From positions 1,883 to 65,882 of the forward strand of contig CAZBKZ010000007.1 in assembly GCA_964492615.1 (NCBI GenBank): a stretch of DNA of 64,000 nt. The letters run 5' to 3'. Made by a program: the position numbers and the translations under genes. The notes below the pieces were generated by a model. That model ran no database searches and had not been told where the DNA came from. It worked only from the letters and a program-made list of their open reading frames with translations. Of this stretch, positions 976 through 31,537 are shown one piece after another (positions within the stretch are counted from its first letter, which is position 1; the number at the start of each line of letters is the position of its first letter). The DNA comes from an uncultured Syntrophomonadaceae bacterium (GTDB taxonomy: Bacteria > Bacillota > Dethiobacteria > DTU022).

Positions 976-1857
976 GTGATGAATACAATCAAACAGGAAA
1001 TGCGAAAAAAAAGAGTTGAAGCCTTTTACCAGAGTTTCCGTTCAAACAGGATGGGTATGATCGGCGCTGTAATTCTGATCTTTTTTATAGTCATCTCTAT
1101 ATTCGGCCCGCTCTTCTTCCCCTTCAACCCGCTGGAGTTCGGAGAACCGGGCAATGTTCTGCGACCTCCAGGAGGCAGCCACCTGCTGGGAACAGACAAC
1201 CTGGGCCGGGACATTTTCAGCAATTTGCTGGCCGGCGGCAGGGTATCGTTGATGGTGGGGCTGCTGGCAACGGTTATCTCCATGTTTCTCGGTACTTCTA
1301 TCGGGGTGGTCTCGGGCTTTGCCGGCAGTAAAACTGACATGATTTTAATGCGTATAACCGATTTCTTCCTGGTTTTACCCTGGCTGCCGCTGGTTCTGGT
1401 TTTGGCAGCCATTCTGGGCACAAGCATCTGGAATATCATCCTGGTTATCGGTCTCACCAGCTGGGCCGGAACGGCCCGCGTGGTTAGATCGCAAACATTA
1501 TCTTTGAAAGAGCGGCCTTTTATCGAAAGGATACGCTCGATTGGAGCCGACGACAAAACAATAATTATCCGGCACATTTTGCCCAACGTTTTTCCGCTGG
1601 TTTTTGCCAATACAATTTTGATCACCGCCGTGGCAATCCTTTCGGAAACAACCCTCAGTTTTCTCGGCCTGGGTGATACCACCCGTTCAAGCTGGGGCAT
1701 GATGCTTCATTACGCGTTTCAATCGGGCGCAGCCAGTTCCGGGGCTTACTGGTTTTTCCTGCCCCCCGGCATCTGTGTTGTGCTGGTTGTGCTGGCCTTT
1801 ACCTTCCTCGGGTATGCCTTTGACGAAATGTTGAACCCGAAACTTAAAAGGAGATAG
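976..1857 (+). CDS. Peptide ABC transporter permease (OppC/DppC family)
   Basis: 'HLLGTDNLGRD', 'LSFLGLG', 'SWGMML', terminal 'LNPK'. Confidence 0.9.
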   Translation: MMNTIKQEMRKKRVEAFYQSFRSNRMGMIGAVILIFFIVISIFGPLFFPFNPLEFGEPGNVLRPPGGSHLLGTDNLGRDIFSNLLAGGRVSLMVGLLATVISMFLGTSIGVVSGFAGSKTDMILMRITDFFLVLPWLPLVLVLAAILGTSIWNIILVIGLTSWAGTARVVRSQTLSLKERPFIERIRSIGADDKTIIIRHILPNVFPLVFANTILITAVAILSETTLSFLGLGDTTRSSWGMMLHYAFQSGAASSGAYWFFLPPGICVVLVVLAFTFLGYAFDEMLNPKLKRR

Positions 1858-1859
1858 CG

Positions 1860-2828
1860 ATGGAACTGCTGCAGATTAACAACCTTAAAACTTACTTCGA
1901 AATTTCTGCCGGCACCGTTAAAGCAGTCGATGATGTCAGCCTGACCCTGAACTACGGGGAATCTCTCGGCCTGGTCGGCGAATCAGGGTGCGGCAAAACC
2001 ACCACCGCGCTTTCGATTAACAACCTGCTGCCTGATGAAGGCAGAATAGTTTCCGGGGAAATCCTGCTGGAAGGGAAAAACCTGGTTGAAATGAGCGATC
2101 GTGAAATTAAGAAAATTCGCTGGAATGATGTTTCGATGATTTTCCAGGGAGCAATGAACGCATTAAACCCGGTTATGAAAATCGGCGACCAGATCGCTGA
2201 AACAATCGTATTACACCAGAAAAGCTCATTCAGAGAAGCGCTTAAAAAAGCCGAAGAGCTTTTCGCCCTGGTCGATCTTGAACCAAAACGTATTTCAAAC
2301 TATCCCCACGAGTTTAGCGGCGGTATGAAGCAGAGAGCGATGATCGCCATGGCCCTGGCCTGTAACCCAAAGCTGGTAATCGGTGATGAGCCGACAACCG
2401 CTCTTGATGTTATGGTCCAGGCCCAGATTTTAAACCTGCTCTACAGGCTGAGGCAGGAGTTGAATATGGGGTTAATCCTGATTACCCATGATCTCTCTAT
2501 CCTGGGAGAAACATGTGATAAAATTGCGGTGATGTATGCCGGAAAAATTGTCGAATCAGGCGATGTAGAAGATATCTTTAACCGCAACAAACATCCTTAC
2601 ACGCATAAACTGCTCTCTTCTTTCCCCAACATTCACCGGGAAAGAATCATGCCTGAGGCAATTGAAGGAATACCCCCGGATCTGATCAACCCGCCACCTG
2701 GCTGCAGGTTCCATCCCAGGTGCCCCTATTGTATAGAGATCTGCCGGAGCGAAGAGCCGGCAATGACCATGGAGAGCAAAGGCCATTATTACGCCTGCCA
2801 CCTGGGGGGTGTGCACAATGGAAAATAA
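1860..2828 (+). CDS. Peptide ABC transporter ATPase (OppD/DppD family)
   Basis: Walker A GESGCGKT, FSGGMKQR, DEPTTALD, C-terminal GCRFHPRC domain. Confidence 0.92.
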   Translation: MELLQINNLKTYFEISAGTVKAVDDVSLTLNYGESLGLVGESGCGKTTTALSINNLLPDEGRIVSGEILLEGKNLVEMSDREIKKIRWNDVSMIFQGAMNALNPVMKIGDQIAETIVLHQKSSFREALKKAEELFALVDLEPKRISNYPHEFSGGMKQRAMIAMALACNPKLVIGDEPTTALDVMVQAQILNLLYRLRQELNMGLILITHDLSILGETCDKIAVMYAGKIVESGDVEDIFNRNKHPYTHKLLSSFPNIHRERIMPEAIEGIPPDLINPPPGCRFHPRCPYCIEICRSEEPAMTMESKGHYYACHLGGVHNGK

Positions 2829-3822
2829 GAATAAAATTATTTCGGTTAAAGATCTTAAAGTTCAATTTCAGATCAAGCAGTCTTTTCTGCACGAGCTCTT
2901 TGCAAAGAAGCAGAAAATTGTTAAAGCTGTTGACGGTATCAGCCTCGATATTCACCAGGGAGAAATAGTATCCCTGGTCGGCGAAAGCGGCAGCGGAAAG
3001 ACCACACTGGGCAAAGCCATACTAAACCTGACCCCGATAACCTCCGGAGAAGTATTGTTCAAAGGTAAAAAGGTAGAACATACCAATAAAAGAGAACTGA
3101 AGCGTTTCAGGCAAAAAGCGCAAATGATTTTTCAGGATCCCTACCAGTCGCTCGACCCGAAAAGCATGATTATCGATACTGTGGCGGAACCGCTCGAGGT
3201 TAATAATCTGCTTAAAACTGCAGCCGAGAGGAAGGAAAAAACAGTTAAAGCCCTGGAGGGCAGCGGTCTGGCCCCGGCCGAAAACTATCTTTACCGTTAC
3301 CCGTACGAGCTGAGCGGAGGGCAGCGCCAAAGGGTGGCAATTGCCGGCTCGATTATCCTGGATCCCGACTTCATCGTAGCTGACGAACCGGTCTCCATGC
3401 TCGATGTTTCCGTGCGAACCGGCATCCTGAAGCTCTTGCTGGAGCTTAAGAATGCCCGCAACCTGGCCTTTCTCTTCATTACCCACGACCTTTCCCTATC
3501 CTGGCTCATATCGGACCGGATCGCCATCATGTACCTGGGTAAGATAGTCGAAATTGGCCCGGCCGACGAGATAATAAAAAACTGCCGCCATCCTTATACC
3601 CGGGCCCTGCTCAGTATCATGCCCATTCCAGAGGTGCATCGCAACAGGAACAGGCAGGTTCTTAAAGGTGAAATACCAGACCCGACTGAAATACCCCGGG
3701 GCTGCCGTTTTAATACACGCTGCGAATTTGCCCATGACAGATGCTATAACGAAGAACCGCAGTTTACAGCGATCAGTGACAACCACGATGTTGCCTGCCA
3801 CCTGGCAGCAAAGGAGCAATAA
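2818..3822 (+). CDS. Peptide ABC transporter ATPase (OppF/DppF family)
   Basis: GESGSGKT, LSGGQRQR, DEPVSMLD, GCRFNTRC; ATG at 2818 after GGGGGTG RBS. Confidence 0.92.
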   Translation: MENKNKIISVKDLKVQFQIKQSFLHELFAKKQKIVKAVDGISLDIHQGEIVSLVGESGSGKTTLGKAILNLTPITSGEVLFKGKKVEHTNKRELKRFRQKAQMIFQDPYQSLDPKSMIIDTVAEPLEVNNLLKTAAERKEKTVKALEGSGLAPAENYLYRYPYELSGGQRQRVAIAGSIILDPDFIVADEPVSMLDVSVRTGILKLLLELKNARNLAFLFITHDLSLSWLISDRIAIMYLGKIVEIGPADEIIKNCRHPYTRALLSIMPIPEVHRNRNRQVLKGEIPDPTEIPRGCRFNTRCEFAHDRCYNEEPQFTAISDNHDVACHLAAKEQ

Positions 3823-13823: not shown

Positions 13824-13858
13824 ATACAGAACGAGTGATTCGGGATTGGAGGATATTT

Positions 13859-16639
13859 ATGTACGACATTGCCATTATCGGAGCAGGTATTATTGGAACA
13901 GCCCTGGCCAGGGAATTGTCAAAATACAGGCTCAACCTAATTTTAATTGAGAAAGACAGCGATGTGGCCAACGGCACCACCAAGGCCAACAGCGCCATTG
14001 TTCATGCTGGATTCGACCCCGATCCGGACAGCCTGAAAGGCCGCTTAAACGGGGAAGGAAACCGCCTTTTTAAAGAGCTCTGCCGTGAGCTGGATGTGCC
14101 TTTTCACAGGATCGGTTCACTGGTGATTGCATTTTGCGATGAGGAAATGAAAACCCTTGAGGAACTTTATCATCGCGGCCAGGAAAATAAAATTCCCGGT
14201 TTAAGAATTGTTGGCAGGCAAGAGCTGCATGAGATGGAACCAAACCTGAGCGATGAAGCATGCGGGGCTCTATATGCGGCAACGGCTGCCATTACCGACC
14301 CCTACCTGCTGGCCATAGCCCTGGCCGAAAGCGCCGTCGAAAACGGAACCGATATTAAACTAGACAGTCCTGTTAAAGCAATAAAGAAAGTGGACGGTTG
14401 TTTCCACATCAGCTGTAACAGTGAAACAATAGAGAGCCGTTACGTGGTAAATGCAGCAGGCCTCTTTGCAGACCAGATCAACGAAATGCTTAATCCACCT
14501 TCGTTTAAAATAAAGCCGACCAGGGGCGAATATTTTCTACTCGATAAGAAGACCGGTCATCATGCCAGGCACGTTTTGTTCCCTTGCCCGACTAAAGCCG
14601 GCAAGGGAGTATTAATCTCTCCCACTGCGCACGGCAACCTGATTATAGGGCCAAACGCCGAAACGGTTGATGCACCCGATGCCCTGCAGACAACGGCCGG
14701 AGGCCTTGACTTTGTTCGTCGGAATGCGGAAAAAATTAAAAAGAATCTGCCCTTCAATGATGTAATAACCAGCTTCAGCGGGCTGAGGGCTAAAACGGAT
14801 CGTGGCGATTTTATAATCGAGGAATCTACCGACTCACCCGGCTTTTTTAATGTTGCCGGAATCGAATCCCCTGGGCTGGCAGCAGCCCCTGCCATAGCTG
14901 TTTACGTAGCCGGACTGCTGCAGGAAAAGGCAGGATCTTTCGAAACAAAGCAATCTTTTAAAGCACGGCCTAAGAATCACACCCCCTTTATGTCTTTGGA
15001 TGACGATACCAGGGCAAGAATGATTGCCGAAGATCCCCGTTACGGCAGAATATTATGCCGATGTGAAAACATTACTGAAGGTGAAATAGTAAGGGCAATT
15101 CAGGGACCGCTCGGGGCCAGAACGGTAGACGGGATCAAAAAAAGAGTCAGGCCGGGCAGCGGGCGCTGCCAGGGTGGTTTCTGCGGGCCCCGGGTGATGC
15201 AGATCCTTGCCCGTGAGCTGGGCAGGGAAATGCCTGAAATAAAAAAAGATAACCCCGGTTCATACATACTGACCGGGACAACCAAGGGTAAAGAGGTGGA
15301 ACAAAGAGAACCCGGCGCTGTCGGCAAATGCCCTCCTCCCACCTCCAACCTTAAAATTGAAGACAAGGTCAAAGAAAAATACGAACTGGTTATAATCGGA
15401 GGCGGTCCAGCTGGTATGGCAGCAGCCGTGGCAGCGCGTGAAGAAGGTATCGAAGATATCCTGGTCATCGAACGGGATCATGAACTGGGCGGTATTTTGC
15501 AGCAATGCATCCATAACGGTTTCGGCCTGCACCAGTTCAGGGAAGAACTGACCGGGCCCGAGTACGCCGAACGCTTCATCAATTTACTAAAGGAAAAAGA
15601 AATCACCTGCAAGCTGGATACCATGGTTCTATCTGTCGGCCAAGATAAAACTATCACCTATATAAACACTGCCGACGGTATAACCACCATTCAGGCCGGA
15701 TCCATAGTGCTGGCCATGGGCTGCCGGGAAAGAACCAGGGGAGCGATCAATATCCCCGGAACCAGGCCGGCCGGCATTTTTTCTGCAGGTACAGCCCAGC
15801 GTTTCGTTAATATTGAAGGGTACATGGTGGGACGCAAAGTTGTTGTGTTCGGTTCGGGCGATATCGGCCTGATCATGGCCCGGCGCATTGTATTGGAAGG
15901 CGGTGAAGTGGTTGCCGTTATCGAACGTAAGCCGTATTCCGAAGGTCTGGTCCGCAACTTTGTCCAGTGCATCCAGGATTTTGACATTCCCATGCTGTTG
16001 GAACATACCATTGTCGATATAAAGGGAAAAGACCGGGTGGAAGGAATCACCATAGCAAAAACCGACAGCAGCAAGCGGCCGCTGCCCGGCACGGAACGGG
16101 ACCTTGAATGTGATACTATTCTTTTTTCGAGAGGTTTAATACCTGAAAACGAACTCTCCAAGAGCGCAGGAGTTAAACTTCACCCTCACACAGGCGGGCC
16201 GGTGGTTAATGAAGCGATGGAAACAAGCGTGGAAGGTATTTTTGCCTGCGGCAACGTGGTTCACGTCCACGACCTGGTCGACTGGGTCACTGACGAAAGT
16301 TATAAAGCCGGCAAGGGTGCAGCTGCTTATGTCAGGGACAAAAACTCCAGGCAAAAAGATTTTCAATTTAAAACCAGTCCGCTCAGCGGAGTGGGCTATA
16401 TAGTGCCCCACCTGGTTCGACCCGGGCAGATGGGTGAAACCCTGGAAATGTACATGCGGGTTAAGGGTAACCACGAAAACGCAGCCCTGTTGGTTAAAGC
16501 AGACGGACAACTAGTTAAAACAGTAAAGAAAAAAGTACTTACCCCGGGTGAAATGGTCGTGATCAAAATGAAAAAGAGCGAGCTGCCTGAAAACAGTTTT
16601 GAAGAACTAAGCATAGAACTGTCCGGGGAGGCGAAATAG
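13859..16639 (+). CDS. Fused GlpA/LhgO-like FAD oxidoreductase (with BFD-like [2Fe-2S]) and NAD(P)/FAD-dependent oxidoreductase
   Basis: GAGIIG; CRCE...GRCQGGFC BFD motif; second Rossmann fold GGGPAG, QCIHNGFG, GSGDIG, ACGNVVHVHDLVD in one continuous frame. Confidence 0.85.
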   Translation: MYDIAIIGAGIIGTALARELSKYRLNLILIEKDSDVANGTTKANSAIVHAGFDPDPDSLKGRLNGEGNRLFKELCRELDVPFHRIGSLVIAFCDEEMKTLEELYHRGQENKIPGLRIVGRQELHEMEPNLSDEACGALYAATAAITDPYLLAIALAESAVENGTDIKLDSPVKAIKKVDGCFHISCNSETIESRYVVNAAGLFADQINEMLNPPSFKIKPTRGEYFLLDKKTGHHARHVLFPCPTKAGKGVLISPTAHGNLIIGPNAETVDAPDALQTTAGGLDFVRRNAEKIKKNLPFNDVITSFSGLRAKTDRGDFIIEESTDSPGFFNVAGIESPGLAAAPAIAVYVAGLLQEKAGSFETKQSFKARPKNHTPFMSLDDDTRARMIAEDPRYGRILCRCENITEGEIVRAIQGPLGARTVDGIKKRVRPGSGRCQGGFCGPRVMQILARELGREMPEIKKDNPGSYILTGTTKGKEVEQREPGAVGKCPPPTSNLKIEDKVKEKYELVIIGGGPAGMAAAVAAREEGIEDILVIERDHELGGILQQCIHNGFGLHQFREELTGPEYAERFINLLKEKEITCKLDTMVLSVGQDKTITYINTADGITTIQAGSIVLAMGCRERTRGAINIPGTRPAGIFSAGTAQRFVNIEGYMVGRKVVVFGSGDIGLIMARRIVLEGGEVVAVIERKPYSEGLVRNFVQCIQDFDIPMLLEHTIVDIKGKDRVEGITIAKTDSSKRPLPGTERDLECDTILFSRGLIPENELSKSAGVKLHPHTGGPVVNEAMETSVEGIFACGNVVHVHDLVDWVTDESYKAGKGAAAYVRDKNSRQKDFQFKTSPLSGVGYIVPHLVRPGQMGETLEMYMRVKGNHENAALLVKADGQLVKTVKKKVLTPGEMVVIKMKKSELPENSFEELSIELSGEAK

Positions 16640-19814: not shown

Positions 19815-20663
19815 CTATTCAATTCCGATCCTGAAAATATCTTGCAAAAATGTATCAGGTTGTTTCCCCGAAGCGCTGTACTCAAAAATACCCAGGCCAA
19901 CCAGGTTAAATTTCTCATTTAATCTTTTAATTAAGCTTAGCAGGGTTTGCGGCTTTAAACCGCCCGTTACCGGAACAGGAACATGGGGAAATTCTTCCGG
20001 GTCCAGCACGTCAAGGTCTAAATGAATATAAATATTTCCATCCATTCCGGAACCAGGATTGCTGAGCATGGAGTTTTCAACTGCCGTTATTAAACTTTCA
20101 CATCCTGCTTCAAGTTCTTTAACCTTCAGCACTTTTAAATCTGTTTTTTCAATATATGCGGTTTCGGCTGGATCAAGATCACGCAGCCCGGCCATAATCA
20201 CTTGAACAGGCTTCAGAACCGAGGGAAGCAAGCTTATGATAGTTGGGTCACCTTCTCCAAGTAATGTTCTGGCCGGCATGCCGTAGAAATAGCCGCTGGG
20301 CGAACTCCGGGGGGTATTCAAATCCCCGTGTGCATCAAACCAGATAACGGTCAGCCCTTCGTTATAAACTGCATTTAAATATGCTATGGGCAGCAGCCCT
20401 GCATCACATCCGCCACCGAGAGTAAAAATCTTTTGCGGCCGCTGAAAATCAATCAGCCTGGCGACATCTCTCATCTGCAGTAATATATCATCATAGCCGA
20501 AAATATCATTCTTTTTATCTGTGACAGGGCTGGTGCTTACGCTTACTTCTTCTAAGCCCACCTGCCCGGCGAGGTATTTCTTAAGCTCTACTGCCCCGTA
20601 ATATGGAGACAGGTCCGGACCACTACCCTGCCACTGAGGATAAAACAGATTTAGTTTTTCCAT
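19815..20663 (-). CDS. Arginase/ureohydrolase family protein
   Basis: LGGGC, WFDAHGD, HLDLDVLDP motifs. Confidence 0.82.
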   Translation of the reverse strand: MEKLNLFYPQWQGSGPDLSPYYGAVELKKYLAGQVGLEEVSVSTSPVTDKKNDIFGYDDILLQMRDVARLIDFQRPQKIFTLGGGCDAGLLPIAYLNAVYNEGLTVIWFDAHGDLNTPRSSPSGYFYGMPARTLLGEGDPTIISLLPSVLKPVQVIMAGLRDLDPAETAYIEKTDLKVLKVKELEAGCESLITAVENSMLSNPGSGMDGNIYIHLDLDVLDPEEFPHVPVPVTGGLKPQTLLSLIKRLNEKFNLVGLGIFEYSASGKQPDTFLQDIFRIGIE

Positions 20664-20900: not shown

Positions 20901-22652
20901 TCAATCATCATAGCTGTTAAATTTATCTGGCAACCCACATAAACCTTCTATACAATCCGTTTCATTTTGAGTCGGCAACCATTTATCAATTGAAGCAGTT
21001 CCCAGGTGGCGATAGTCTGTAGCTATAAATAACGGACTTGTCTCTCCTCCTACCACAATTATCCTGATCTGTTTCGGGTCATGATACTGATTGATTAGCT
21101 CCTCATTATTAAGCCTGCTCCAAGTGCTATATGGCTCCACCCCTCTTTCAGCTTCTGATCCTAACAACATCTGTACCGTATCGGCAGCCCAAAATTTACC
21201 TGCTTCTATTTTTATACTGTTTGACAAATGAATGCTGAATTCTTCTTTTGTTTTGAACCCTTGTTTGTCCTTCAATTCCTTTGCTACTAGCGGATCCATA
21301 ATAATAGTCGCATTTGAGTATACAGATGGTATCGCTTCATACAAAATATTCATTTCTTCGGTTACTGAACGGTTGGAGGGTGCTCCAGAACTATTTATAA
21401 GCGTCCAACCACGGAATAGGCTAACAGCGTTATCTTCCTTTTTATAACCATTCTGAACATGAAAAGGCTGCCAACAACTCCTTTTTTCATTTTCCGCAAC
21501 ACACATATTGTTGTATGTAAAATTATTACCCAACGAACTCCATAATGTTTTCTTGTATTGTGAAAAACCCCAGCAGTGACTAATCAATGTCCAAGCTCTA
21601 CCAATTACTGCATTTGCTTTATTTACAGCGCTGAAAGCAGCTAAACCTGAATTGATTCCAATCTTTTCTGCAATTGGTCCATTAACCAGGACCATGGATC
21701 CAAAGGGAGTAGTAGAGGGCCGCAATGACGGTTCAGCCATAGAAGCTATAGCAAGAATAACTGGCAAATATTCTGTTTCAGCTCCAGCCATTACTGCTAT
21801 GGTTGCAATATTTGCTACTGTCGATTTTACTACTTCGTTTGTATCTTCAAGAAAAACTTCGGCAACTAATTCGTCAGGATTAACATTTGTGCCTTCTAAC
21901 ATCTTTCTCACTCTTTCTTCAGTAGGCACTATTATAGGTAACCCTTCAGTCCATCCTTTTTTATAAAAAAGAGCTTGTAGGTTTTCTTCAGTATCCGGGC
22001 CAATCAAGTTATTACAATCTTCTTGCCTTGCCGATGAATTGGGTTTAGCTCCAGCTTTTATTGGATTTACCATTTTCGTCAGCAAATCCATAATTCCTAT
22101 GTTTACTGGTTTTCCACTATGGGGATCATCGCCAGAAATATAATCGTATAATGTGTCCTGGGCCACTCCAACTACTGGATGAGGAGTGTAAACAAATTGT
22201 AAAACTTTCCCTATCGGATTCATATCAACAACTTTTTTATATTCAATAGTTGAAATTGGGGCTACGGGAACTCCATATTTACCTTCCAATTTGATCGTAG
22301 ATGCAGCGACCGCTGCAGCACAACCCGGTCACCCTGCTACCCCTAAAATGGCAGCATCGCCCTTTTCACTAATTTCCTTCCAAAGTTTTTCACAGTTCTC
22401 ATCTTCCATAAATACATTTCCCGGTTTCCTTTTCCTGACAGTTCTTACAGTTGGGTAGTAGTCGCTAAACCATTTTTGAAGGGCAAGCATAAAATAAGCA
22501 CTGCCTCCGAACCCGGTATCCACAAGGTAAACAGTTTTTCCCTCCAGTGTTGATAATCTGTTCGCCGGCGAAAAATCAACTTCTTCGGACTTACTTAAGA
22601 CTTTATCACCTGATACAGGACTTATAGCATAAATCTTTTTAGTTGATTTCAT
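20901..22652 (-). CDS. Selenoprotein, UGSC-like family, 583 aa; Sec at codon 108 (UGA 22329-22331) in a U-P-G-C motif
   Basis: The 107-aa and 462-aa ORFs are in the same frame, separated by one TGA; readthrough gives ...AILGVAG-U-PGCAAAVAASTIKLEGKYGVP; AAGGAG RBS only at the upstream ATG; SECIS-like hairpin follows. Confidence 0.85.
22302..22317 (-). promoter_or_regulatory. Bacterial SECIS element
   Basis: UGCAGC-GGUC-GCUGCA hairpin starting 12 nt after the UGA, with a G-first loop as in the E. coli fdhF SECIS. Confidence 0.8.
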
Positions 22653-23051
22653 AATGTCACTCCTTTTTCGGTTTCGGAATGGTACGCAGAATTTTTTTCG
22701 ATTATCGTGGAAATCAAATATTGTCTAATAGTATAACATAATCCTATATCTATAATAGGCTTCTATTTATTCTGTAAAAAACGCCTAAAAATAGTTATTC
22801 TAACCACCCGAGCCAATAGAAAAATAAATTGTAATTGATTCATCCAGCCTCGAGGAAGTGTGCTTTTATATAATGATTACTTGTCCCTACCCTCTCCTGT
22901 AAAGTATCAATTCCTGCTAGGAATTAGCTCAGTAGCTTTAACCTGCCTTTTGACAATGATCAACCTGAGAGCTTATAATACTAATTAATAATATTTATTA
23001 TTCGGGTACCTGCATTGCATCCATATCATATTTGAATATCACCAAGGCGGG

Positions 23052-25715
23052 ATGAACTTGGATATTGTGAAGACAAAGATTTCCCCCCCTGTCAAGGATG
23101 CAACATTCCTGGAAAGACATAACCTTATTTCCAGGTTAAACCAATGGCCGGACAAGAAGCTTACTCTGATTTCGGCTTCCGCTGGCAGTGGTAAAACCAG
23201 CCTGGTTAGTATGTGGATCCACAAGCTGATAAGCAATAAAGCTGACTGTAACGTTGCCTGGTATACCATTGATAAACACGACAACGATCCAGTTCGTTTT
23301 ATCCGTTATTTACTTTTTTCGCTACAGGAAGCTGGATACTGCGGTTTTAGTGACAGACTTAACAGTTTCTCGGAATTGCACAACATGCACCTTACCGAAA
23401 CCATGGCTTATATTGTCAGTTTACTCATAGACAACGATGACAATACTCCCCTTATTATTGTTCTTGATGATTACCAGACTATATACTCCCAGATAATACA
23501 TGAAGGAATAAATTTTTTATTGCGCTACCTTCCTTCTCACATCCATATAGTCATTTTAACTCGTAATGACCCTCCCTTGAACCTATCTTCACTGAGAGTA
23601 AAAGATCAGTTAATAGAGATCCGAACAGAAGATTTAAACTTTGATTATACTGAAAGCGAAGTATTTCTCAATAAACATCTACAGAATGACCTTGACCAGG
23701 AAACTATTGCCATGTTGCATAGGAAAACTGAAGGTTGGATAACAGGTCTTCAACTAACAGCATTATCTTTACGCAATAATAAAAAATCAAATAACCTTCA
23801 GTTGAATGAAGGAAACCATTTGATTGTCGATTACTTAATGGAAGAGGTTTATTCACAGCTTTCTGAAAAAATGCAGTCATTCCTTCTTCAAACTTCCATT
23901 TTAAGTCGATTTACTGTTTCTTTATGTGAATATGTTACCGGAATAGAAGAGAGCTACGAATTAATTGAGGCGCTCAGACGAGACAATCTTTTCATAGTAC
24001 CACTTGATCACGATGGGGAATGGTTCAGGTACCAAAATCAATTTTCTTATTTTTTACAGAGAAGGCTTCCTATAAATAACCAGGATAAAATGTGTGAGTT
24101 GCATACCAGAGCAGCCAACTGGCACTATAAAAAAAGACTTCGTCATGAGGCTTTTGATCATGCTGTTTCATCTCAAAATCCTGAATTAATTAATAAACTT
24201 GCGGAGGGTTATGTTGAAGAGCTATGGATAGCCGGTGAACATGCCCTCTTAATGGAACGCATGTCGCAAATCCCGGAGCCGGTAATGGAGAAAAATGCTC
24301 ATTTACGATTATTTTGGGCTTTGTTACGAATGGATTATGGGAAAATAGATACAAAACTACTAAAAACAGTTTTTTCCGAAAGCGCGAATAGCTTTTCAAG
24401 CAAAGAACTGGGTATGCTTGAAACAATCAGGGCTTCTTACGGCAACATTATTCAGAAATCAGAGATCATCAAAAGACATGCATCTTCGGCTATTGAACAT
24501 TTCAGTCGTTCTAATCCTGTATGGCAGAACAACGCCATATGTGTTCTTGCCCGGAATTATTATCTTTCAGGTGACCTGCAAGAAGCAGAAAAATACTTCC
24601 GTTTCGCATATCGTGAATCAATCTTAAATAGAAGTAGAAATATTGACTATCAGGCAGCATTTCATCTTGCCGATACCCTTCGGTCACAAGGCAGGTTCAA
24701 GGAAGCAAAAACACTCTGTCTTGAAAAATTGAAAGAAATAGAAAGCTGTGGCCTCTACCAGTTATTATACTCTGGTAGTTTTTACGTTGTCATGGGTGAA
24801 ATTTCCTGTGAAGAAAACGATATTAAATCGGCGCTTACCTATGGAGTGAAAAGTATAAAATTAGCAGAACAAAGAAACAACAGTCTCTCTCTGTGCATAA
24901 GCTACAAAAAACTGCTTAACACTTATATATCTATTAGAGATTACGATAAGATCAAAACCATATTAAATAAACTTCTTTCTTTAAAGAATAACACCTTTCT
25001 TCCTTCATGGATTGAAACAACTTTTCGCCTTGCTCAATCTGTTTTATATATACTGGATGAGAAAAACGATGAAGCGATCCAGGTTCTTCAACCGCCAAGT
25101 ATAAACAATAATTCAACCACAAAATTAACTAACGAAGACATAAGGGAATTACTATTCCTCTCTCGCCTGTATCTTCAAACCGGCAACCCCGGCAAGGCCG
25201 AACCTATCATTAAGAAGCTTAAGTTCAGACTGGCGAAAAATAACCGCTGGACATCATATCTAAATTGCCTTATTAATGAAGCTGCATACTGGGAACAGAT
25301 GGGAAATGAACAAAAAGCAGAAGAATGCGTTTGTGAAGCTCTGGAACTTGGTTTCCAAAAAGAATACTTGCGGACTTTTATCAATGCAGGCCCATTGCTG
25401 CAGTACAGGATGAGCAAGTTGAACCGAATGAATAAGCTTAGCAATTATGGTAAGAACATCTTAAATTATATTGAAACAGATCTATCTTCCAGAGCTGATT
25501 GCATTAACACCAACACTCAACTGGATCCACTCAGCCCAAGAGAATACGAGATCCTTAAGCTTTTACCCACCCAGTTATCCTACCCTGAAATTGCGGACCA
25601 CCTTTACATTTCCTATAGCACTGTTCGTTCACATGTAAAAAATATATACATGAAGCTAAATGCACACAGCCGCCTTGAAGCAGTAAATATTGGTCGCGCG
25701 CGCGGTTTAATCTAA
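23052..25715 (+). CDS. MalT-like (STAND ATPase-TPR-LuxR) transcriptional regulator
   Basis: TKISPP, SAGSGKTS, LDDY, TEGW, C-terminal 'LSPREYEIL...TVRSHVKNIYMKL' LuxR HTH. Confidence 0.9.
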   Translation: MNLDIVKTKISPPVKDATFLERHNLISRLNQWPDKKLTLISASAGSGKTSLVSMWIHKLISNKADCNVAWYTIDKHDNDPVRFIRYLLFSLQEAGYCGFSDRLNSFSELHNMHLTETMAYIVSLLIDNDDNTPLIIVLDDYQTIYSQIIHEGINFLLRYLPSHIHIVILTRNDPPLNLSSLRVKDQLIEIRTEDLNFDYTESEVFLNKHLQNDLDQETIAMLHRKTEGWITGLQLTALSLRNNKKSNNLQLNEGNHLIVDYLMEEVYSQLSEKMQSFLLQTSILSRFTVSLCEYVTGIEESYELIEALRRDNLFIVPLDHDGEWFRYQNQFSYFLQRRLPINNQDKMCELHTRAANWHYKKRLRHEAFDHAVSSQNPELINKLAEGYVEELWIAGEHALLMERMSQIPEPVMEKNAHLRLFWALLRMDYGKIDTKLLKTVFSESANSFSSKELGMLETIRASYGNIIQKSEIIKRHASSAIEHFSRSNPVWQNNAICVLARNYYLSGDLQEAEKYFRFAYRESILNRSRNIDYQAAFHLADTLRSQGRFKEAKTLCLEKLKEIESCGLYQLLYSGSFYVVMGEISCEENDIKSALTYGVKSIKLAEQRNNSLSLCISYKKLLNTYISIRDYDKIKTILNKLLSLKNNTFLPSWIETTFRLAQSVLYILDEKNDEAIQVLQPPSINNNSTTKLTNEDIRELLFLSRLYLQTGNPGKAEPIIKKLKFRLAKNNRWTSYLNCLINEAAYWEQMGNEQKAEECVCEALELGFQKEYLRTFINAGPLLQYRMSKLNRMNKLSNYGKNILNYIETDLSSRADCINTNTQLDPLSPREYEILKLLPTQLSYPEIADHLYISYSTVRSHVKNIYMKLNAHSRLEAVNIGRARGLI

Positions 25716-25764: not shown

Positions 25765-25824
25765 ATCAGATAAGTATCAGGCATAATCTGTTAACAAATG
25801 ATACCACTAGGAGGCGTAATAAAA

Positions 25825-26742
25825 ATGCAAGATAAATACTCTCACCTGGTTAAGCCACTTTTAGTTCAACCCCCCCCGGAAAACCTCTACACGGAAACCC
25901 GAGTTTGGATGGAAGGAAAAGATCTTGAAGGTTTTAATGCCCACTTTTCATATGGATTTATTAAAAATCCATCTACTTTTCACCCTGTAGAAGGCTCTAT
26001 TGTTCATCCGTTTGATGAATGCCTTGTTTTTGTAGGCACTAAAAATGACGATTTACTTTACCTGGGCGCAGAAATATCAATCACGCTCGGAGATGAACAA
26101 GAGGAATATACTTTTTGTAAACCGTCCGTTGTTGTAATACCTAAAGGAATGCCTCATGGCCCTGTTACAGTTAAAAGTATAGATCGACCAATCGTACATT
26201 ACAGCATTGGCCTCGCCCCCGAATATAAAGCAGAAATAATTAACAATAAAACTATTGCTGCCAAGACTAACAGCAATAAATACAGCCATCTGATCAAAAC
26301 AATCAAACCTTTAGAAACATTGGATCCTGAAGGAAACCCAAGGAATCCTCAAGTAGGTCAATTGGGACCAGGAAACGCTGATCAGATAATGTGGGTTTAC
26401 GGAGAAGACCTTGAAGGGCTCGAAGTTAATTTCACATGGGGTTTTTATTCTCAGTGCGGTATCTGGCATCGAGGTGGTACAGCACATACACATCCTGAAG
26501 AAGAAATTTTAGTTTTTCCCGGTTTGAACCCTGATGATCTTAATGATTTCGGGGCAGAATTGGAAATTGCCCTGGGATACGAATTTGAGAGGCACATCAT
26601 CAATAGCCCTACCGTCGTTATCTGCCCTCAGGGCTTTCCTCACAACCCAGTCGTAGCAAGATGGGTAGATAATCCTTATGGATTTATAGTCTGCTGCCTG
26701 AGTGGCGAACATGATTCGCCTTGGGTAGATATCAAGGAATAA
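25825..26742 (+). CDS. Uncharacterised bicupin-like protein (two internal repeats)
   Basis: Repeats begin 'KYSHL'; motifs HPFDE...PKGMPHGP and HTHPEEE...PQGFPHNP; AGGAGG RBS. Confidence 0.7.
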   Translation: MQDKYSHLVKPLLVQPPPENLYTETRVWMEGKDLEGFNAHFSYGFIKNPSTFHPVEGSIVHPFDECLVFVGTKNDDLLYLGAEISITLGDEQEEYTFCKPSVVVIPKGMPHGPVTVKSIDRPIVHYSIGLAPEYKAEIINNKTIAAKTNSNKYSHLIKTIKPLETLDPEGNPRNPQVGQLGPGNADQIMWVYGEDLEGLEVNFTWGFYSQCGIWHRGGTAHTHPEEEILVFPGLNPDDLNDFGAELEIALGYEFERHIINSPTVVICPQGFPHNPVVARWVDNPYGFIVCCLSGEHDSPWVDIKE

Positions 26743-26773
26743 ACAGCTTTTATTATGATTGGAGGGTTACTAT

Positions 26774-27223
26774 ATGAGTAAATCACTTTATGAGGACTAT
26801 ATCCTCAGAGATATTCAGCTTCACGGACATCCACATGAAGACGATGTAGAATACCCGGTAATGGCTATGAAAACACTTACAGACTACGGAAATCACGGGT
26901 GCGCCTTAAGCTGGTGGCCAATTAGTAAACCTATGGCTATGGTAAAAGATACTCACTCTCATGACTTTGATCAGTATTTAATGTTTATTGGTGGTGACCT
27001 TACAAACATGAATGAGCTGGGTGGTGAAGTAGAACTGACTATTGGGCTTCCAGGGAAAGCACTTGAAACCATTACATTTACAAAAGCCACCACTTTTTTT
27101 GTGCCAGCCGGCATGTTACATGGACCACTTTACTTTAAAGAAATAAAGAATCCCCTGAAGCCAATATTGTTCCATGATTTCTTCTTTGCCGGAGAATATA
27201 GTAGAAAAGTTGAATCTGTTTAA
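26774..27223 (+). CDS. Uncharacterised monocupin-like protein of the same family
   Basis: HSHDFDQYL..IGG, LGGEVELTIG, PAGMLHGP; GGAGG RBS. Confidence 0.7.
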   Translation: MSKSLYEDYILRDIQLHGHPHEDDVEYPVMAMKTLTDYGNHGCALSWWPISKPMAMVKDTHSHDFDQYLMFIGGDLTNMNELGGEVELTIGLPGKALETITFTKATTFFVPAGMLHGPLYFKEIKNPLKPILFHDFFFAGEYSRKVESV

Positions 27224-27393
27224 GCAATCCCGGTTTATTCCTGATTACTGAATAAAGTAGTATATTTTTCAACATAACCCTAAGAACGTGCAATCCGGCC
27301 TTACATTGAAGTCATAGTATAAGCGGAAGTGTAAATTAAGCATAAGGTTATTTGTTGTTTAAGATATTTAAAAATGATTACTGTTCTTTCAAT

Positions 27394-27422
27394 AATCTGA
27401 AAATACCTCAATTGAGGGATGT
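27394..27422 (+). promoter_or_regulatory. 29-bp operator copy 2
   Basis: Exact copy of 25736-25764; AATAGT (-10-like) at the same 17-nt distance. Confidence 0.75.
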
Positions 27423-27482
27423 GCTGAATCAAAATTAACAATAGTTTTATAGTAAGTCATGATACAAGGAGGATCTAAAAGC

Positions 27483-28418
27483 ATGGATAAAGAGTATTCC
27501 CATTTGATTAAACCCTTGGTTGTTAAAAGCCCTCCTGAAGGATTATACCCAACGGAGCCCCGCTTTTGGATGGAAGGAAAAGATCTAGAAGGTTTTCAAG
27601 GCCATTTTTCATACGGTTTTTATAAAAAACCGACCACATTACACCCTACAGAGGGATCAGTTGTTCACCCCCATGACGAATGTCTGGTATTTGTAGGAAC
27701 AGATCACACTAATATACTGTATTTAGGTGCTGAGGTATCGATAGAACTCGGAGAAGAACGGGAAGAACACATTTTTAACGAGCCTACAGTGATAGTCATC
27801 CCAAAAGGTCTTCCTCACGGACCAGTAAAAATCAACAAAGTTGAAAAACCAATAATACATTATAGTATAGGTTTAGGACCCGAATATAAAGCAGAAATAC
27901 TTTATGAAAACGCCACTAAACCTAAAACAAATAGTAATAAATATAGCCATTTGGTCAAAAAATTCATTTCGCATCCTGAACCAGGATCTTCAATGGCTGA
28001 TATTGCAGACGAGAAAGGAGTAATGCATGCTTCTACAGGCGGAGTAGGCCCTGGTAATGGCGATGAAGTAGTCTGGGTCTTTGGTAAGGATCTTGAAGGC
28101 CTTGAAATCAACTTCAGCTGGGGTTTTTATACCCAGTGCGGTAAATGGCATAGAGGAGGTGAAGCTCACACCCACCCCGAAGAGGAGATCCTGGTCTATG
28201 TTGGACTTGATCCCGAAAACATCGATTACCTTGGAGCAGAGCTGGAACTTGGCATGGGGAAAGATTATGAACGTCATATCTTTAACACTCCCACTGTGGC
28301 GATTTGCCCACAAGGATTCCCACACCTTCCGCTTATAACAAGATGGGTTGACAAGCCATATGGTTTCTTCGTTTGCTGCCTGAGCGGAGACCATGACTCG
28401 CCCTGGGTGGAGGCTTAA
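27483..28418 (+). CDS. Uncharacterised bicupin-like protein, paralogue of 25825-26742
   Basis: Shared blocks WMEGKDLEGF, DECLVFVG, QCGxWHRGG.AHTHPEEEIL, CCLSG.HDSPWV. Confidence 0.72.
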   Translation: MDKEYSHLIKPLVVKSPPEGLYPTEPRFWMEGKDLEGFQGHFSYGFYKKPTTLHPTEGSVVHPHDECLVFVGTDHTNILYLGAEVSIELGEEREEHIFNEPTVIVIPKGLPHGPVKINKVEKPIIHYSIGLGPEYKAEILYENATKPKTNSNKYSHLVKKFISHPEPGSSMADIADEKGVMHASTGGVGPGNGDEVVWVFGKDLEGLEINFSWGFYTQCGKWHRGGEAHTHPEEEILVYVGLDPENIDYLGAELELGMGKDYERHIFNTPTVAICPQGFPHLPLITRWVDKPYGFFVCCLSGDHDSPWVEA

Positions 28419-28481: not shown

Positions 28482-29576
28482 ATGAAAAAAAGCACTTTAA
28501 TGTATATTGCTTTAATCTTAATTATGGGCTTGTTATTTATCAGCGGTTGTTCAGGAGACACTTCAACACCTTCCGAATCAGAAGCTGAAAGTGAAGGCCC
28601 TGAGGAGATTGCTGAAGGACCAACAGCAGATGAACCCATTAATCTTGTTTTTGCAACATGGGAGCAGCCTACTACCGCGCTGGGTGTAATCTATCAAGAA
28701 GCAGCTGATCGCATTGAAGAAGAAACAGGTGGCAGAGTAGTAATGGAATGTTATTTCTCCGGTTCGTTACTGGAATACGCAGATGTGTTCCCCGGCGTTG
28801 CCTCTGGAAGGGCAGACATTGCCACAGCAATTTCATCTATGGCAACGGGAAAACTTAACCAGATATTTGATCAACCATACATAGGTATTCCTGATCAGGT
28901 AGAAGCAACAAAGGCATTTAAGGAGCTTTTAGTAACACGTCCGGAATTTCAGGAGGAAATGGAGCAGAACAACACACGGTGGATCAGCTTGCGAGCTATG
29001 CCCCCATACTGGTTACATACTGTTACTAAGCCAGTCAGAGTTCCTGATGATCTGAGGGGAACTAAGATAATGGCCAGTGGAGACACAATTGTTGATGTTT
29101 CTGGCGGTGCCTCCATTAATGCAGCTCCACCAGATATGTACATGAACCTTGAAAGAGGTCTCGCTGACGGACAAATTACCCACTGGAATGCAATAGTAAC
29201 CTTTGGCTTAAAAGAGCTATTTAATTACCATACCAGTTTCGGAGGTCCTCAAACCGGCCTGAAAGCCAGTGCAATCGGCTGGGTTATCAACCTTGACACC
29301 TGGAACAGCCTGCCCTCTGATATACAGGATATAATTGTTGAAGTATATGAATGGGCTGATATTGAACTAGGCAAACATGCTGAAGGCCAGGATGCTATGG
29401 CATGGTCCCGTGAGCAAGGTCATGAATTCATCGAGGTTACCGGTGAAGATCTCATACCCTGGGAAGAAGTTGCACAGCCAACAGTAGATAAATGGATCGA
29501 GGACGCAACAGCTGCAGGTTGGCCCGCCGCTGAAATCTGGGATTATTTTGGCGAATTAATTGAAAAACACAGGTAA
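28482..29576 (+). CDS. dctP: TRAP transporter substrate-binding lipoprotein DctP
   Basis: Lipobox 'FISGC', acidic linker, 'GRADIA', 'PDDLRG', 'YMNLERG..DG', 'WNSLP.D.Q'. Confidence 0.85.
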   Translation: MKKSTLMYIALILIMGLLFISGCSGDTSTPSESEAESEGPEEIAEGPTADEPINLVFATWEQPTTALGVIYQEAADRIEEETGGRVVMECYFSGSLLEYADVFPGVASGRADIATAISSMATGKLNQIFDQPYIGIPDQVEATKAFKELLVTRPEFQEEMEQNNTRWISLRAMPPYWLHTVTKPVRVPDDLRGTKIMASGDTIVDVSGGASINAAPPDMYMNLERGLADGQITHWNAIVTFGLKELFNYHTSFGGPQTGLKASAIGWVINLDTWNSLPSDIQDIIVEVYEWADIELGKHAEGQDAMAWSREQGHEFIEVTGEDLIPWEEVAQPTVDKWIEDATAAGWPAAEIWDYFGELIEKHR

Positions 29577-29747: not shown

Positions 29748-30242
29748 GTGATAAATTTGAGAAAAGCTGAAAAACTTATCTACTGGATAAGTGAAACATC
29801 AGCGATTATAGCAACAGTAGTGTTAATCCTCCTGATGCTCATTACCGTCAGCGATGTATTAATCCGCACTTTTTTTAACGAAACTATTCTTGGAATTGTT
29901 GAACTTACCGAAATGATGATGCCTGTTATAGGCTTTCTCGGTATAGCTTGGTGCGCTTTGCAGGGTGGTCATGTTGCAGTAGATATCCTGATTAGTTCGC
30001 TGTCTGAAGGAAAACAAAAAGTTTTTGATATTTTAAATTACCTGTTAGCAATTGTGATTACTTTTTTAATTGGTTGGCATACTCTGCAGCAGAGTTTCTT
30101 TATTAAACAGATTAATGTTGTAACTGATAGCCTGGACCTTCCAAAATACCCATTCATGATCATCGCCGCAGTAGGTTTCTTCTTAATGACTCTTGCTGTA
30201 TTTATCCTATTATTAAAAACATTTGAGCGGAGGGAGCACTAA
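29748..30242 (+). CDS. dctQ: TRAP transporter small permease DctQ
   Basis: 4 TM segments, 'DVLIR', 'GGHVAVD'. Confidence 0.85.
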   Translation: MINLRKAEKLIYWISETSAIIATVVLILLMLITVSDVLIRTFFNETILGIVELTEMMMPVIGFLGIAWCALQGGHVAVDILISSLSEGKQKVFDILNYLLAIVITFLIGWHTLQQSFFIKQINVVTDSLDLPKYPFMIIAAVGFFLMTLAVFILLLKTFERREH

Positions 30243-31537
30243 TGTCACCTGAAATGATCGGCGTTATTGGAATAATAATTCTTGTAATAATGTTATTCAT
30301 GCGATTATGGATTGGCATTATACTTGCTGTAATTGGTATGGTTGGCTATGCCCTCCTAACTAATTGGGATAGATCTCTTTTAATGATCGGCACTGAACCA
30401 TTTAGTCATGCCGCTACATATGCGATATCAGCAATGCCGCTTTTTATATTAATGGGCATGGTCGTATCTGTTACCGGGATTGCCGGCGATATGTATCAGG
30501 CTGCCCGTAACTGGATTGGTCATGTACGTGGCGGGTTAGCCATGGCCACTGTAATAGCCTGTGGTGGTTTTGCTGCAGTAACCGGTTCAAGCATGGCCAG
30601 CACTGCTACAATGGGAAAAGTTGCTTATCCTGAAATGATAAAATATAAATACAATGAGCGTCTGGCTGCAGGCTGTATTTCGGCTGGAGGCACCGTTGGT
30701 ATACTTATTCCTCCTAGTATAGGTTTTATTATATACGGACTCTTCACTGAAAATTCTATTGGCAAACTATTCATGGCGGGTATACTGCCTGGCTTAAGTG
30801 AAATACTTTTTTATATAATAACTATCTTTATTGTGTGCCGCTTTAAACCACATTATGGACCACCGGGACCAAAAGTAGTTTTAAAAGAAAAAATAGTTTC
30901 ACTCAGGGGCGTCTGGTCAATAGCAGTCCTTTTTATATTGGTTATTGGTGGCATATATGGAGGATTTTTCACTCCAACTGAAGCAGGTGCTATAGGCGCT
31001 TTTGGAGCTATTGTCATTGCCCTAGCCACTCGCAGAATAACGATCAAAGGTTTAATGAGAACTTTTCGCGAAACCGCACAAACAACTGCTATGATCATGA
31101 TTATGATTGCCGGCTCGATGATCTTTAACCGCTTTATCACTGTAAGCAAGTTACCGGTCGCTATGGGTGATTTCGTAGCCGGCCTTGATGTCTCTCCTAT
31201 TATGATCATGGCCGGTATTGTTCTACTTTACCTTGTAATAGGATGTTTTGTAGATATTATTGCAGCGATCGTCTTAACTTTACCTGTGATATACCCAATT
31301 GTGATGATTTTAGGTTTTGATCCATTTTGGTTTGGTGTTATTATGGTGAGATTAATGGAAGTAGGCGCCATTACTCCCCCCATGGGCCTTAATATTTTTA
31401 TTCTTGCCAAGACTATTAACATACCTGTTGGAACTATATACCGAAGTGTTTTTCCTTTTGTTGTAGCAGATTTTGTGAATCTGGCATTTTTAATTGCCTT
31501 TCCTCAAATCTCTCTCTTCCTGGTTAACCTTATGTAG
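30242..31537 (+). CDS. dctM: TRAP transporter large permease DctM
   Basis: PLFILMG, GILIPPS, FTPTEAG, ITPPMGLN. Confidence 0.92.
   Translation: MSPEMIGVIGIIILVIMLFMRLWIGIILAVIGMVGYALLTNWDRSLLMIGTEPFSHAATYAISAMPLFILMGMVVSVTGIAGDMYQAARNWIGHVRGGLAMATVIACGGFAAVTGSSMASTATMGKVAYPEMIKYKYNERLAAGCISAGGTVGILIPPSIGFIIYGLFTENSIGKLFMAGILPGLSEILFYIITIFIVCRFKPHYGPPGPKVVLKEKIVSLRGVWSIAVLFILVIGGIYGGFFTPTEAGAIGAFGAIVIALATRRITIKGLMRTFRETAQTTAMIMIMIAGSMIFNRFITVSKLPVAMGDFVAGLDVSPIMIMAGIVLLYLVIGCFVDIIAAIVLTLPVIYPIVMILGFDPFWFGVIMVRLMEVGAITPPMGLNIFILAKTINIPVGTIYRSVFPFVVADFVNLAFLIAFPQISLFLVNLM

Follow-up and report, generated by a model that had tools for sequence, protein, structure and literature searches.

Selenoproteins with a UGSC motif have been in print since 2007-2008, and in the sections of these reports that deal with them they are an abundant family of unknown function (PMC1976440, PMC2398784). 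In the same sections, UGSC proteins rank with the most abundant families of selenoproteins of the Global Ocean Sampling (GOS) ocean metagenomes, and fusions to a conserved unknown domain termed 'Unknown_1' are described for some of them (PMC2398784). The family is grouped with selenoproteins that resemble thiol oxidoreductases and have no known function (PMC2398784, PMC13188914), and in the pertinent part of a 2026 review it is still counted as uncharacterised (PMC13188914). Here we describe a gene of this kind in a stretch of 64,000 nucleotides (nt) from an uncultured Syntrophomonadaceae bacterium (contig CAZBKZ010000007.1, positions 1,883 to 65,882; hereafter the window), the source genome (G000) being a metagenome-assembled draft of 94 contigs. 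The gene is a mis-annotated further UGSC member, in a subfamily with the motif U-P-G-C and a conserved C-terminal tail, and its in-frame UGA is very probably read as selenocysteine (Sec).

A preliminary description of the window, made from the sequence alone, had proposed a hidden selenoenzyme at this position. The novelty that it implied is lower than it seemed, as both the UGSC selenoprotein family and a fusion of UGSC with an unknown domain appear in the published sections on the family (PMC2398784). What is added here is a link of the Sec module to GrdB, an unannotated C-terminal domain and a conserved tail. The GrdB link, this conserved domain, the dithiol tail and a recurrent neighbour resembling thioredoxin reductase (TrxR) are leads that make UGSC function more testable, and the subfamily is a widespread one that is systematically mis-called, 120 of the 120 closest relatives being likewise stored in truncated form.

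One gene continuing through an in-frame UGA

The gene lies on the minus strand (20901..22652) and runs in a single frame from ATG 22652 to its true stop, TGA 20903-20901, over 583 codons, the sole break being TGA 22331-22329. An open reading frame (ORF) of 107 amino acids (aa; 22329..22652, minus strand) stops at this TGA, and one of 462 aa (20901..22289, minus strand) shares its frame. The ORF list and the translation of 22652-20904 with TGA read as U agree with the preliminary description, which had joined the two ORFs into 583 aa; the product contains one recoded codon, U108, in the context ...DAAILGVAG-U-PGC-AAAVAAS.... The proposed Sec codon (22329..22331, minus strand) is followed by TGT (22320..22322, minus strand) for Cys111, the putative resolving Cys of U-P-G-C.

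The signals for translation initiation are found at the upstream start. A Shine-Dalgarno-like element, AAAGGAGTG (22658..22666, minus strand), read from the sequence and including GGAG at 22663-22660, precedes ATG 22652-22650 with a 7-nt spacer. The sole in-frame start 3' of the TGA is TTG 22289, which has no ribosome-binding site, as had been claimed before, and the nearby ATG 22276 is out of frame. A promoter and terminator scan found neither on the strand of the selenoprotein gene.

Homologous loci were collected by scanning one genome per species; from the 595 stretches confirmed in this way, the best 80 were retained, and locus counts in this text refer to these 80. According to the record titles, the carriers include Desulfobacterota, Actinomycetota, Acidobacteriota, Chloroflexota, Bacillota, Alpha-, Beta- and Gammaproteobacteria and Verrucomicrobiota. 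The codon aligned to U108 is TGA in 68 loci, TGC in nine, TGT in two and CTA (Leu) in one, and a Cys stands three residues further on in 79 of the 80, the exception being L049 (LDTN). The commonest motifs are USTC (40 loci), CSTC (nine), UPGC, UDGC and USSC (six each) and UGGC (five), with seven rarer variants. In every locus a single tblastn segment crosses the Sec position and extends, without leaving the frame, from near residue 30 to 558. When the frames of 40 loci were inspected, 34 contained exactly one in-frame TGA and six contained none; other stops were absent from these 40, except for two TAGs in the 3' extension of L049. The 11 loci with Cys at the Sec codon encode uninterrupted proteins of about 560 aa.

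Protein databases give the complementary picture. Standard translation (table 11) yields the two separate ORFs, as the preliminary description had anticipated, and public protein collections hold the gene only as a 462-aa hypothetical protein (P0003, 100% identical). The best 120 matches among 5.8 billion proteins searched all have 421-505 aa and 70-81% query coverage, and by BLASTP all 120 of these closest proteins start at query residue 112 or later (at least 112), which is the pattern expected if gene callers stop at the TGA. An exhaustive HMMER search returned 3,222 representatives at E <= 0.001, including full-length proteins of about 545-570 aa that align over residues 30-558. In an alignment of 17 of the full-length proteins (among 19 rows aligned to the query), the Sec column reads CSTC, CPGC or CGSC in some and has no Cys in others.

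Hairpin after the UGA, selenium machinery and alternative readings

A SECIS-like hairpin (SECIS, selenocysteine insertion sequence) is specific to the Sec forms. In the window, the element UGCAGC-GGUC-GCUGCA, which had been pointed out at +12, is present at 22317-22302 (22302..22317, minus strand; TGCAGC 22317-22312, GGTC 22311-22308, GCTGCA 22307-22302) and begins 12 nt past the TGA. With the U of UGA as position 1, the tetraloop occupies +21..+24, and the 6-bp stem with its loop occupies +15..+30. RNAfold on the 55 nt from the UGA places this upper hairpin atop a longer lower stem at -15.8 kcal/mol, so that the extended helix, lower stem included, is predicted to span 22286..22328 (minus strand).

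A comparison of the upper hairpin comprised 69 TGA sequences (the 68 loci and the window) and 12 non-TGA sequences. At least four contiguous pairs closing the tetraloop at 21-24 are found in 43 of the 69 TGA sequences and in one of the 12 others (Fisher p = 8.6e-4), the loops among the 43 being GGUC (37), AGUU (four) and GACC (two). Pair 17-28 can form in 62 of 69 TGA and one of 12 non-TGA sequences, and pair 16-29 in 54 of 69 and none of 12. Among sequences of the S-x-C motif class, whose peptides are the most similar, 36 of 49 Sec forms and one of ten Cys forms have the 4-bp stem. The remaining 26 TGA sequences come from clades in which the register is shifted, such as a UDGC clade with 6-9-bp stems and GUC or GUG loops and an acidobacterial clade with GACC-GUC-GGUC. 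In an ungapped alignment of the 69 sequences, a 9-pair helix has 61.4% paired cells, compared with 54.7% after shuffling, and a covariation score of 0.256, compared with 0.151 (none of 500 shuffles reaches either value); pair 15-30 is found as CG (19), GC (11), AU (nine), GU (five) and UA (two).

The SECIS of Escherichia coli fdhF is a hairpin about 11 nt past the UGA with a G-U-containing apical loop and a bulged U. The window hairpin resembles it in its GGUC loop and in spacing, the loop positions differing by roughly one base at most, whereas the bulged U is not evident in the 6-bp stem, and other clades of UGSC relatives use the shifted registers and GUC or GUG loops described above. Rfam holds no model for SECIS elements of the fdhF type, and none of its models matched the window element.

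Selenium machinery is encoded in the source genome. Profile searches found selA (593 bits), selB (381 bits) and selD (369 bits), all above the curated cut-offs and contiguous at G000:C4:71792-76165, outside the window. The selD gene carries its own in-frame TGA (...TSAG-U-AAKIGP...), followed by two hairpins. The preliminary description had named selA, selB, selC and selD as genes to be confirmed; selC was not found in the assembly, which holds only 38 tRNA genes and from which tRNA-Ile and tRNA-Tyr are likewise missing. At relaxed settings ARAGORN gave 26 candidate calls for tRNA-Sec, which were unconvincing, and at lenient thresholds (80%) it reported a 'tRNA-SeC' at 22235-22324 of the window (G000:C7:24117-24206) that is the SECIS region itself and a false positive. 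ARAGORN also called a tRNA-Pyl (pyrrolysine, anticodon CUA) at G000:C64:98-169, outside the window, and TAG ends eight of the 46 long ORFs of the window; the organism may decode both UGA as Sec and UAG as pyrrolysine.

Several of these results weigh against decoding of the UGA as Sec. No tRNA-Sec was found in the 94 contigs by default ARAGORN or by a purpose-made pattern scan, and the best candidate for Rfam RF01852 reached 42.9 bits, below the cut-off of 47 (150 of 226 candidates scored). A 71-nt fold of the SECIS region has z = -0.37, with 71 of 200 shuffles folding at least as well, and Rfam over this region returned nothing beyond two matches attributable to chance (E = 2 and 3). Of the six upper pairs of the window hairpin, four are dictated by the Ala (GCN) codons of AAAVAA. 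Pairs changed on both sides number six, compared with 5.3 in shuffles (221 of 500 reach this value), and a partner slid by -3 pairs equally well (61.5%). Moreover, the sequences are both related and coding, so that the tests of the hairpin and of covariation overstate significance and are to be taken as supportive, not as probabilities. As the hairpin energy is unremarkable, the significance of the hairpin rests on the comparison of Sec with Cys forms.

The distribution of TGA and Cys over the 80 loci is not explained by a nonsense mutation, an assembly error or two independent genes. That the 107-aa protein ends at a genuine TGA and a 462-aa protein starts at TTG 22289 is very improbable: table 11 does yield both ORFs, the 462-aa form is in the database, and in L102, a locus of a same-order relative (G021:C364, ~1498-3286, minus strand), the frame of a canonical D-U-G-S-C module differs from that of the C-terminal domain and overlaps it, which is either a natural split or a linker frameshift; but TTG 22289 lacks a ribosome-binding site, the Pfam UGSC match continues over the TGA, the 107-aa piece would stop just before the conserved x-x-C motif, and the loci with Cys at this position encode uninterrupted proteins. 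Consistently separate halves, which would speak for two genes, are not seen in the 80 loci, as each shows one continuous frame. A nonsense mutation in a pseudogene, or an error in the assembly, could be suspected in a 94-contig draft, the more so as four same-genus genomes searched lack the gene, but it is hardly credible when the same codon is TGA in 68 loci of many phyla and in a 67%-identical copy of a same-family relative, when both halves are conserved and when a Sec-specific hairpin follows. Reading of TGA as Trp or Gly under another genetic code would account for the open frame and for nothing further, and tRNA-Pyl(CUA) does indicate stop-codon recoding in this genome; this explanation is vanishingly unlikely, as TGA is an ordinary stop that ends seven of the 46 long window ORFs, the selenoprotein gene among them, as homologues align Cys and not Trp or Gly, and as the selA-selB-selD cluster is present. 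We therefore hold with high confidence that there is one gene, not two, and that it is read through UGA 22331-22329 as Sec to give a 583-aa product.

Domains of the 583-aa protein and their relatives

The N-terminal part of the protein carries a UGSC-family domain (residues 25-168; 22149..22580, minus strand), in which U108-x-x-C111 is placed at the start of helix 109-126 by the DSSP assignment of a predicted model. Pfam UGSC (PF24696) matches residues 25-168 with 48.5 bits (cut-off 25), straight over the UGA, in accordance with the earlier term 'UGSC-like', and a whole-genome search with this family recovers the gene at 44.3 bits with one TGA inside. Some homologues of 450-490 aa are named 'UGSC family (seleno)protein' by NCBI.

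An alignment of 63 rows (A2: the query, 39 of the 80 locus translations, 17 full-length and six truncated representatives) was used for modelling, and the resulting AlphaFold model has a predicted local distance difference test score (pLDDT) of 90.6 and a predicted template modelling score of 0.90. In this model, the N-terminal domain is predicted to consist of four beta-alpha units, with U108 between strand 100-106 and helix 109-126. Foldseek at the level of this domain gives Rossmann/flavodoxin-like matches (7te2, probability 0.97; 1dqs, 0.95; 3t5p, 0.93), and no thioredoxin is among the matches listed for this domain of the model. The analogy with thioredoxin-like CxxC drawn in the preliminary description would thus not extend to the predicted fold, and the nearest sequence relative of the Sec module is GrdB.

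GrdB, selenoprotein B of glycine/sarcosine/betaine reductase, is a subunit of a substrate-specific reductase component. Translated through their UGA, all 12 same-phylum GrdB loci compared give ...AVILTST-U-GTC-TRCGATMVKE-[LI]-ER-x-G-[LI]-P...IP-[HY]-PLG.... When A2 was aligned with eight of these 12 by hhalign, residues 86-195 matched GrdB 329-427 over 96 columns (probability 82.7%, E = 9.5e-6). In the reverse direction, Pfam UGSC is the second-best family on three of three GrdB proteins tested (E = 4e-4, 9e-4 and 3e-3); its 18-21 bits are below the cut-off of 25, and it covers the region past the GRDB model. In both proteins, U-x-x-C stands directly behind a hydrophobic strand, and LE-x-x-G-[VIL]-P and P-H-P-[LV]-G come further on. 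We conclude from these alignments that the Sec module and the Sec-bearing C-terminal part of GrdB are remote homologues. The literature naming both UGSC and GrdB treats them, in the passages concerned, as separate families.

The relationship is limited to about 100 residues around Sec. The 345-aa GRDB domain proper (PF07355) has no match in the protein or in the genome, the scores below family thresholds indicate remote homology and not membership, and the C-terminal domain of the UGSC protein matches neither GrdB nor GrdE. Because searches of the genome detected no GrdA, GrdB or GrdE (the GrdA search having no positive control), the protein would act outside any glycine reductase complex here; a role as a replacement for GrdB in glycine reductase was considered and rejected for this genome, as neither GrdA nor GrdE was detected.

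The C-terminal conserved domain (residues ~216-560; 20973..22007, minus strand) belongs to no Pfam family and resembles no solved fold convincingly. Over this part, 62 of 62 family members are without a match to any Pfam family, and a sequence search of the Protein Data Bank with the family profile gave best E-values of 0.73 and 1.1, which are not significant. The nearest clusters in the ESM Atlas are unannotated proteins of 353-384 aa, and the domain also occurs as stand-alone proteins. Modelled alone, it reaches a pLDDT of 91.4. Invariant or near-invariant polar residues are D236, T244, T255, N347, R352, E387, E389, H398 and D556; there is no conserved Cys. A class I (Fe-S) fumarate hydratase fold was the only one suggested for it by Foldseek against the Protein Data Bank, with the whole model as with the domain alone (E 3e-4 to 5e-3), and was rejected at template modelling (TM) scores of 0.13-0.23 and a root-mean-square deviation of ~17 A; the domain alone gives TM 0.19-0.23, and it has no conserved Cys to serve as an Fe-S ligand. 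A relation to GrdE was likewise dismissed (0.2% probability in a profile comparison), as was a 55% match of the C-terminal profile to GrdB, which is confined to UGSC columns supplied by longer rows.

The protein ends in the tail motif C567-I-E-G-L-C572-G-L-P-D (20925..20954, minus strand; read from the translation, with D preceding C567), so that the C-x-x-G-x-C tail reported earlier as DCIEGLC is indeed present. Of the 120 closest database homologues, 103 have a C..G.C tail, with a consensus of roughly E-C-x-D-G-x-C-G-L-P-D...Y-D from the rows listed, and among the more distant genome loci such a tail is found in six of 80, all of UPGC or UDGC type, and is missing from the other 74. In the model the end of the tail has low confidence (mean pLDDT of 58 for residues 561-570, below 50 for 573-583) and looks flexible. 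The tail might serve as a second redox centre.

Distribution, neighbourhood and possible function

The selenoprotein gene is accessory and patchy. It is found in two of 30 relatives of the source genome and in none of the four same-genus genomes; one of the two carriers has the 67%-identical copy with the TGA, and the other is the source of L102. Toward the 3' side it is followed in the window by an arginase-family gene (19815-20663), a BrnQ-type transporter gene and a HemN-like radical SAM gene, and its divergent neighbour encodes a MalT/LuxR-type regulator (23052-25715), beyond which lie TRAP (tripartite ATP-independent periplasmic) transporter genes. A perfect sigma-70 consensus (TTGACA, 18 nt, TATAAT) is located at 22950-22979 (plus strand), 5' of the regulator gene. 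Three consecutive ORFs of 314, 154 and 319 aa that have no Pfam match (25798-28418, plus strand) are situated between this regulator and the TRAP transporter (DctP 28482-29576, DctM 30242-31537). Elsewhere in the window, 13835-16639 (plus strand) encodes a 934-aa protein in which a DAO-type FAD oxidoreductase, a BFD-like [2Fe-2S] domain and a pyridine nucleotide-disulphide oxidoreductase are fused.

Neighbourhoods were compared by clustering neighbouring ORFs by BLASTP across 81 sources. The neighbour that recurs most often, in 16 of the 81 loci, has about 315 aa, and two scanned representatives of it are TrxR-like flavoproteins (Pyr_redox_2, E = 1e-36 and 1e-37). A selD-like neighbour occurs in four loci and a selA neighbour in four (one representative of each scanned). 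Nineteen extra paralogues stand beside the gene across the 81 loci, and some genomes carry tandem or multiple copies. In L068, L070, L074, L077 and L097, which are Alpha- and Gammaproteobacteria metagenome-assembled genomes, the homologue adjoins selD-like, TrxR-like and selA genes, and it may be a principal client of the Sec machinery there.

Some findings sit uneasily with the assignment to a functional UGSC selenoprotein of this type. The NCBIfam equivalog NF041046 reaches 41.5 bits on the same stretch as Pfam UGSC, short of its cut-off of 125. The near-absence from relatives, the lack of GrdA, GrdB and GrdE in the genome and the neighbourhood are further points of this kind: the neighbours of the gene in the window, the arginase-family, BrnQ, HemN-like, MalT-like and TRAP transporter genes, recur in none of the 80 loci, and the neighbourhood of the closest clade has no common theme.

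The protein probably functions as a selenol/thiol reductase. In the mechanism that we propose, mRNA from ATG 22652 would be translated with its UGA decoded as Sec by SelB and tRNA-Sec, which the GGUC-loop hairpin that starts 12 nt further on would recruit, to give an alpha/beta UGSC domain with U108-P-G-C111 at a helix N-terminus, a domain of about 350 aa and a flexible C-x-[DE]-G-x-C-G-L-P-D tail. The selenolate of U108 would attack a substrate bound by the C-terminal domain, Cys111 would resolve the adduct to form a selenenylsulfide, and the tail dithiol, by analogy with known shuttle tails, and/or a thioredoxin-type system might re-reduce it. Re-reduction of the thioredoxin type would agree with the TrxR-like neighbours found in clades that have no tail. 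More specifically, and only tentatively, the long-form UGSC proteins could constitute a new class of selenoenzyme, in which a GrdB-like Sec/Cys module, a hitherto undescribed 350-aa catalytic domain and, in this subfamily, a dithiol tail like that of ribonucleotide reductase form a three-centre redox relay that reductively cleaves a small substrate, perhaps one derived from an amino acid, without the glycine reductase complex and with electrons from a thioredoxin-type system.

Sec decoding could also be right without any substrate reductase, if the UxxC motif were a general thiol-disulfide, selenium or metal carrier, the C-terminal domain served docking or regulation and the likeness to GrdB reflected a shared fold only. 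The grouping of UGSC with thiol oxidoreductase-like selenoproteins in the published sections on the family (PMC2398784, PMC13188914) fits such a role, and so does a C-terminal domain that has neither a conserved Cys nor a recognisable catalytic fold; the adjoining selD and selA genes could point to selenium handling. On the other hand, D236, R352, E387, E389 and H398 are polar residues typical of active sites, the C-terminal domain is found as stand-alone proteins, and multiple copies and tandem duplication are frequent in substrate-diversified enzymes. The nearest relative of the Sec module is, moreover, part of a substrate-specific reductase component. A carrier role is unlikely on this evidence, though far from negligible, and a reductase remains the reading that we prefer.

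In the proposed reductase, the tail is comparable to the C-terminal redox-shuttle tails of the class Ia ribonucleotide reductase subunit R1 (C-x4-C) and of high-Mr (relative molecular mass) thioredoxin reductase. The analogy would lie in a flexible C-terminal peptide with two Cys residues four residues apart from each other, in the case of R1 and here, and a main redox pair elsewhere in the protein; the tail of the UGSC subfamily could instead bind a metal or a partner.

Compared with the UGSC family as described in print, the UxxC motif with interchange of Sec and Cys is common to both, and Sec forms outnumber Cys forms in both, by 68 to 11 here and by 255 to 21 in the GOS section of the earlier survey (PMC2398784). 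A fusion of UGSC to a conserved unknown domain is likewise common to both (PMC2398784), and 'Unknown_1' could be the C-terminal domain described here. The subfamily described here differs in that its motif is U-P-G-C and not U-G-S-C and in that it ends in the conserved C-x-[DE]-G-x-C-G-L-P-D tail.

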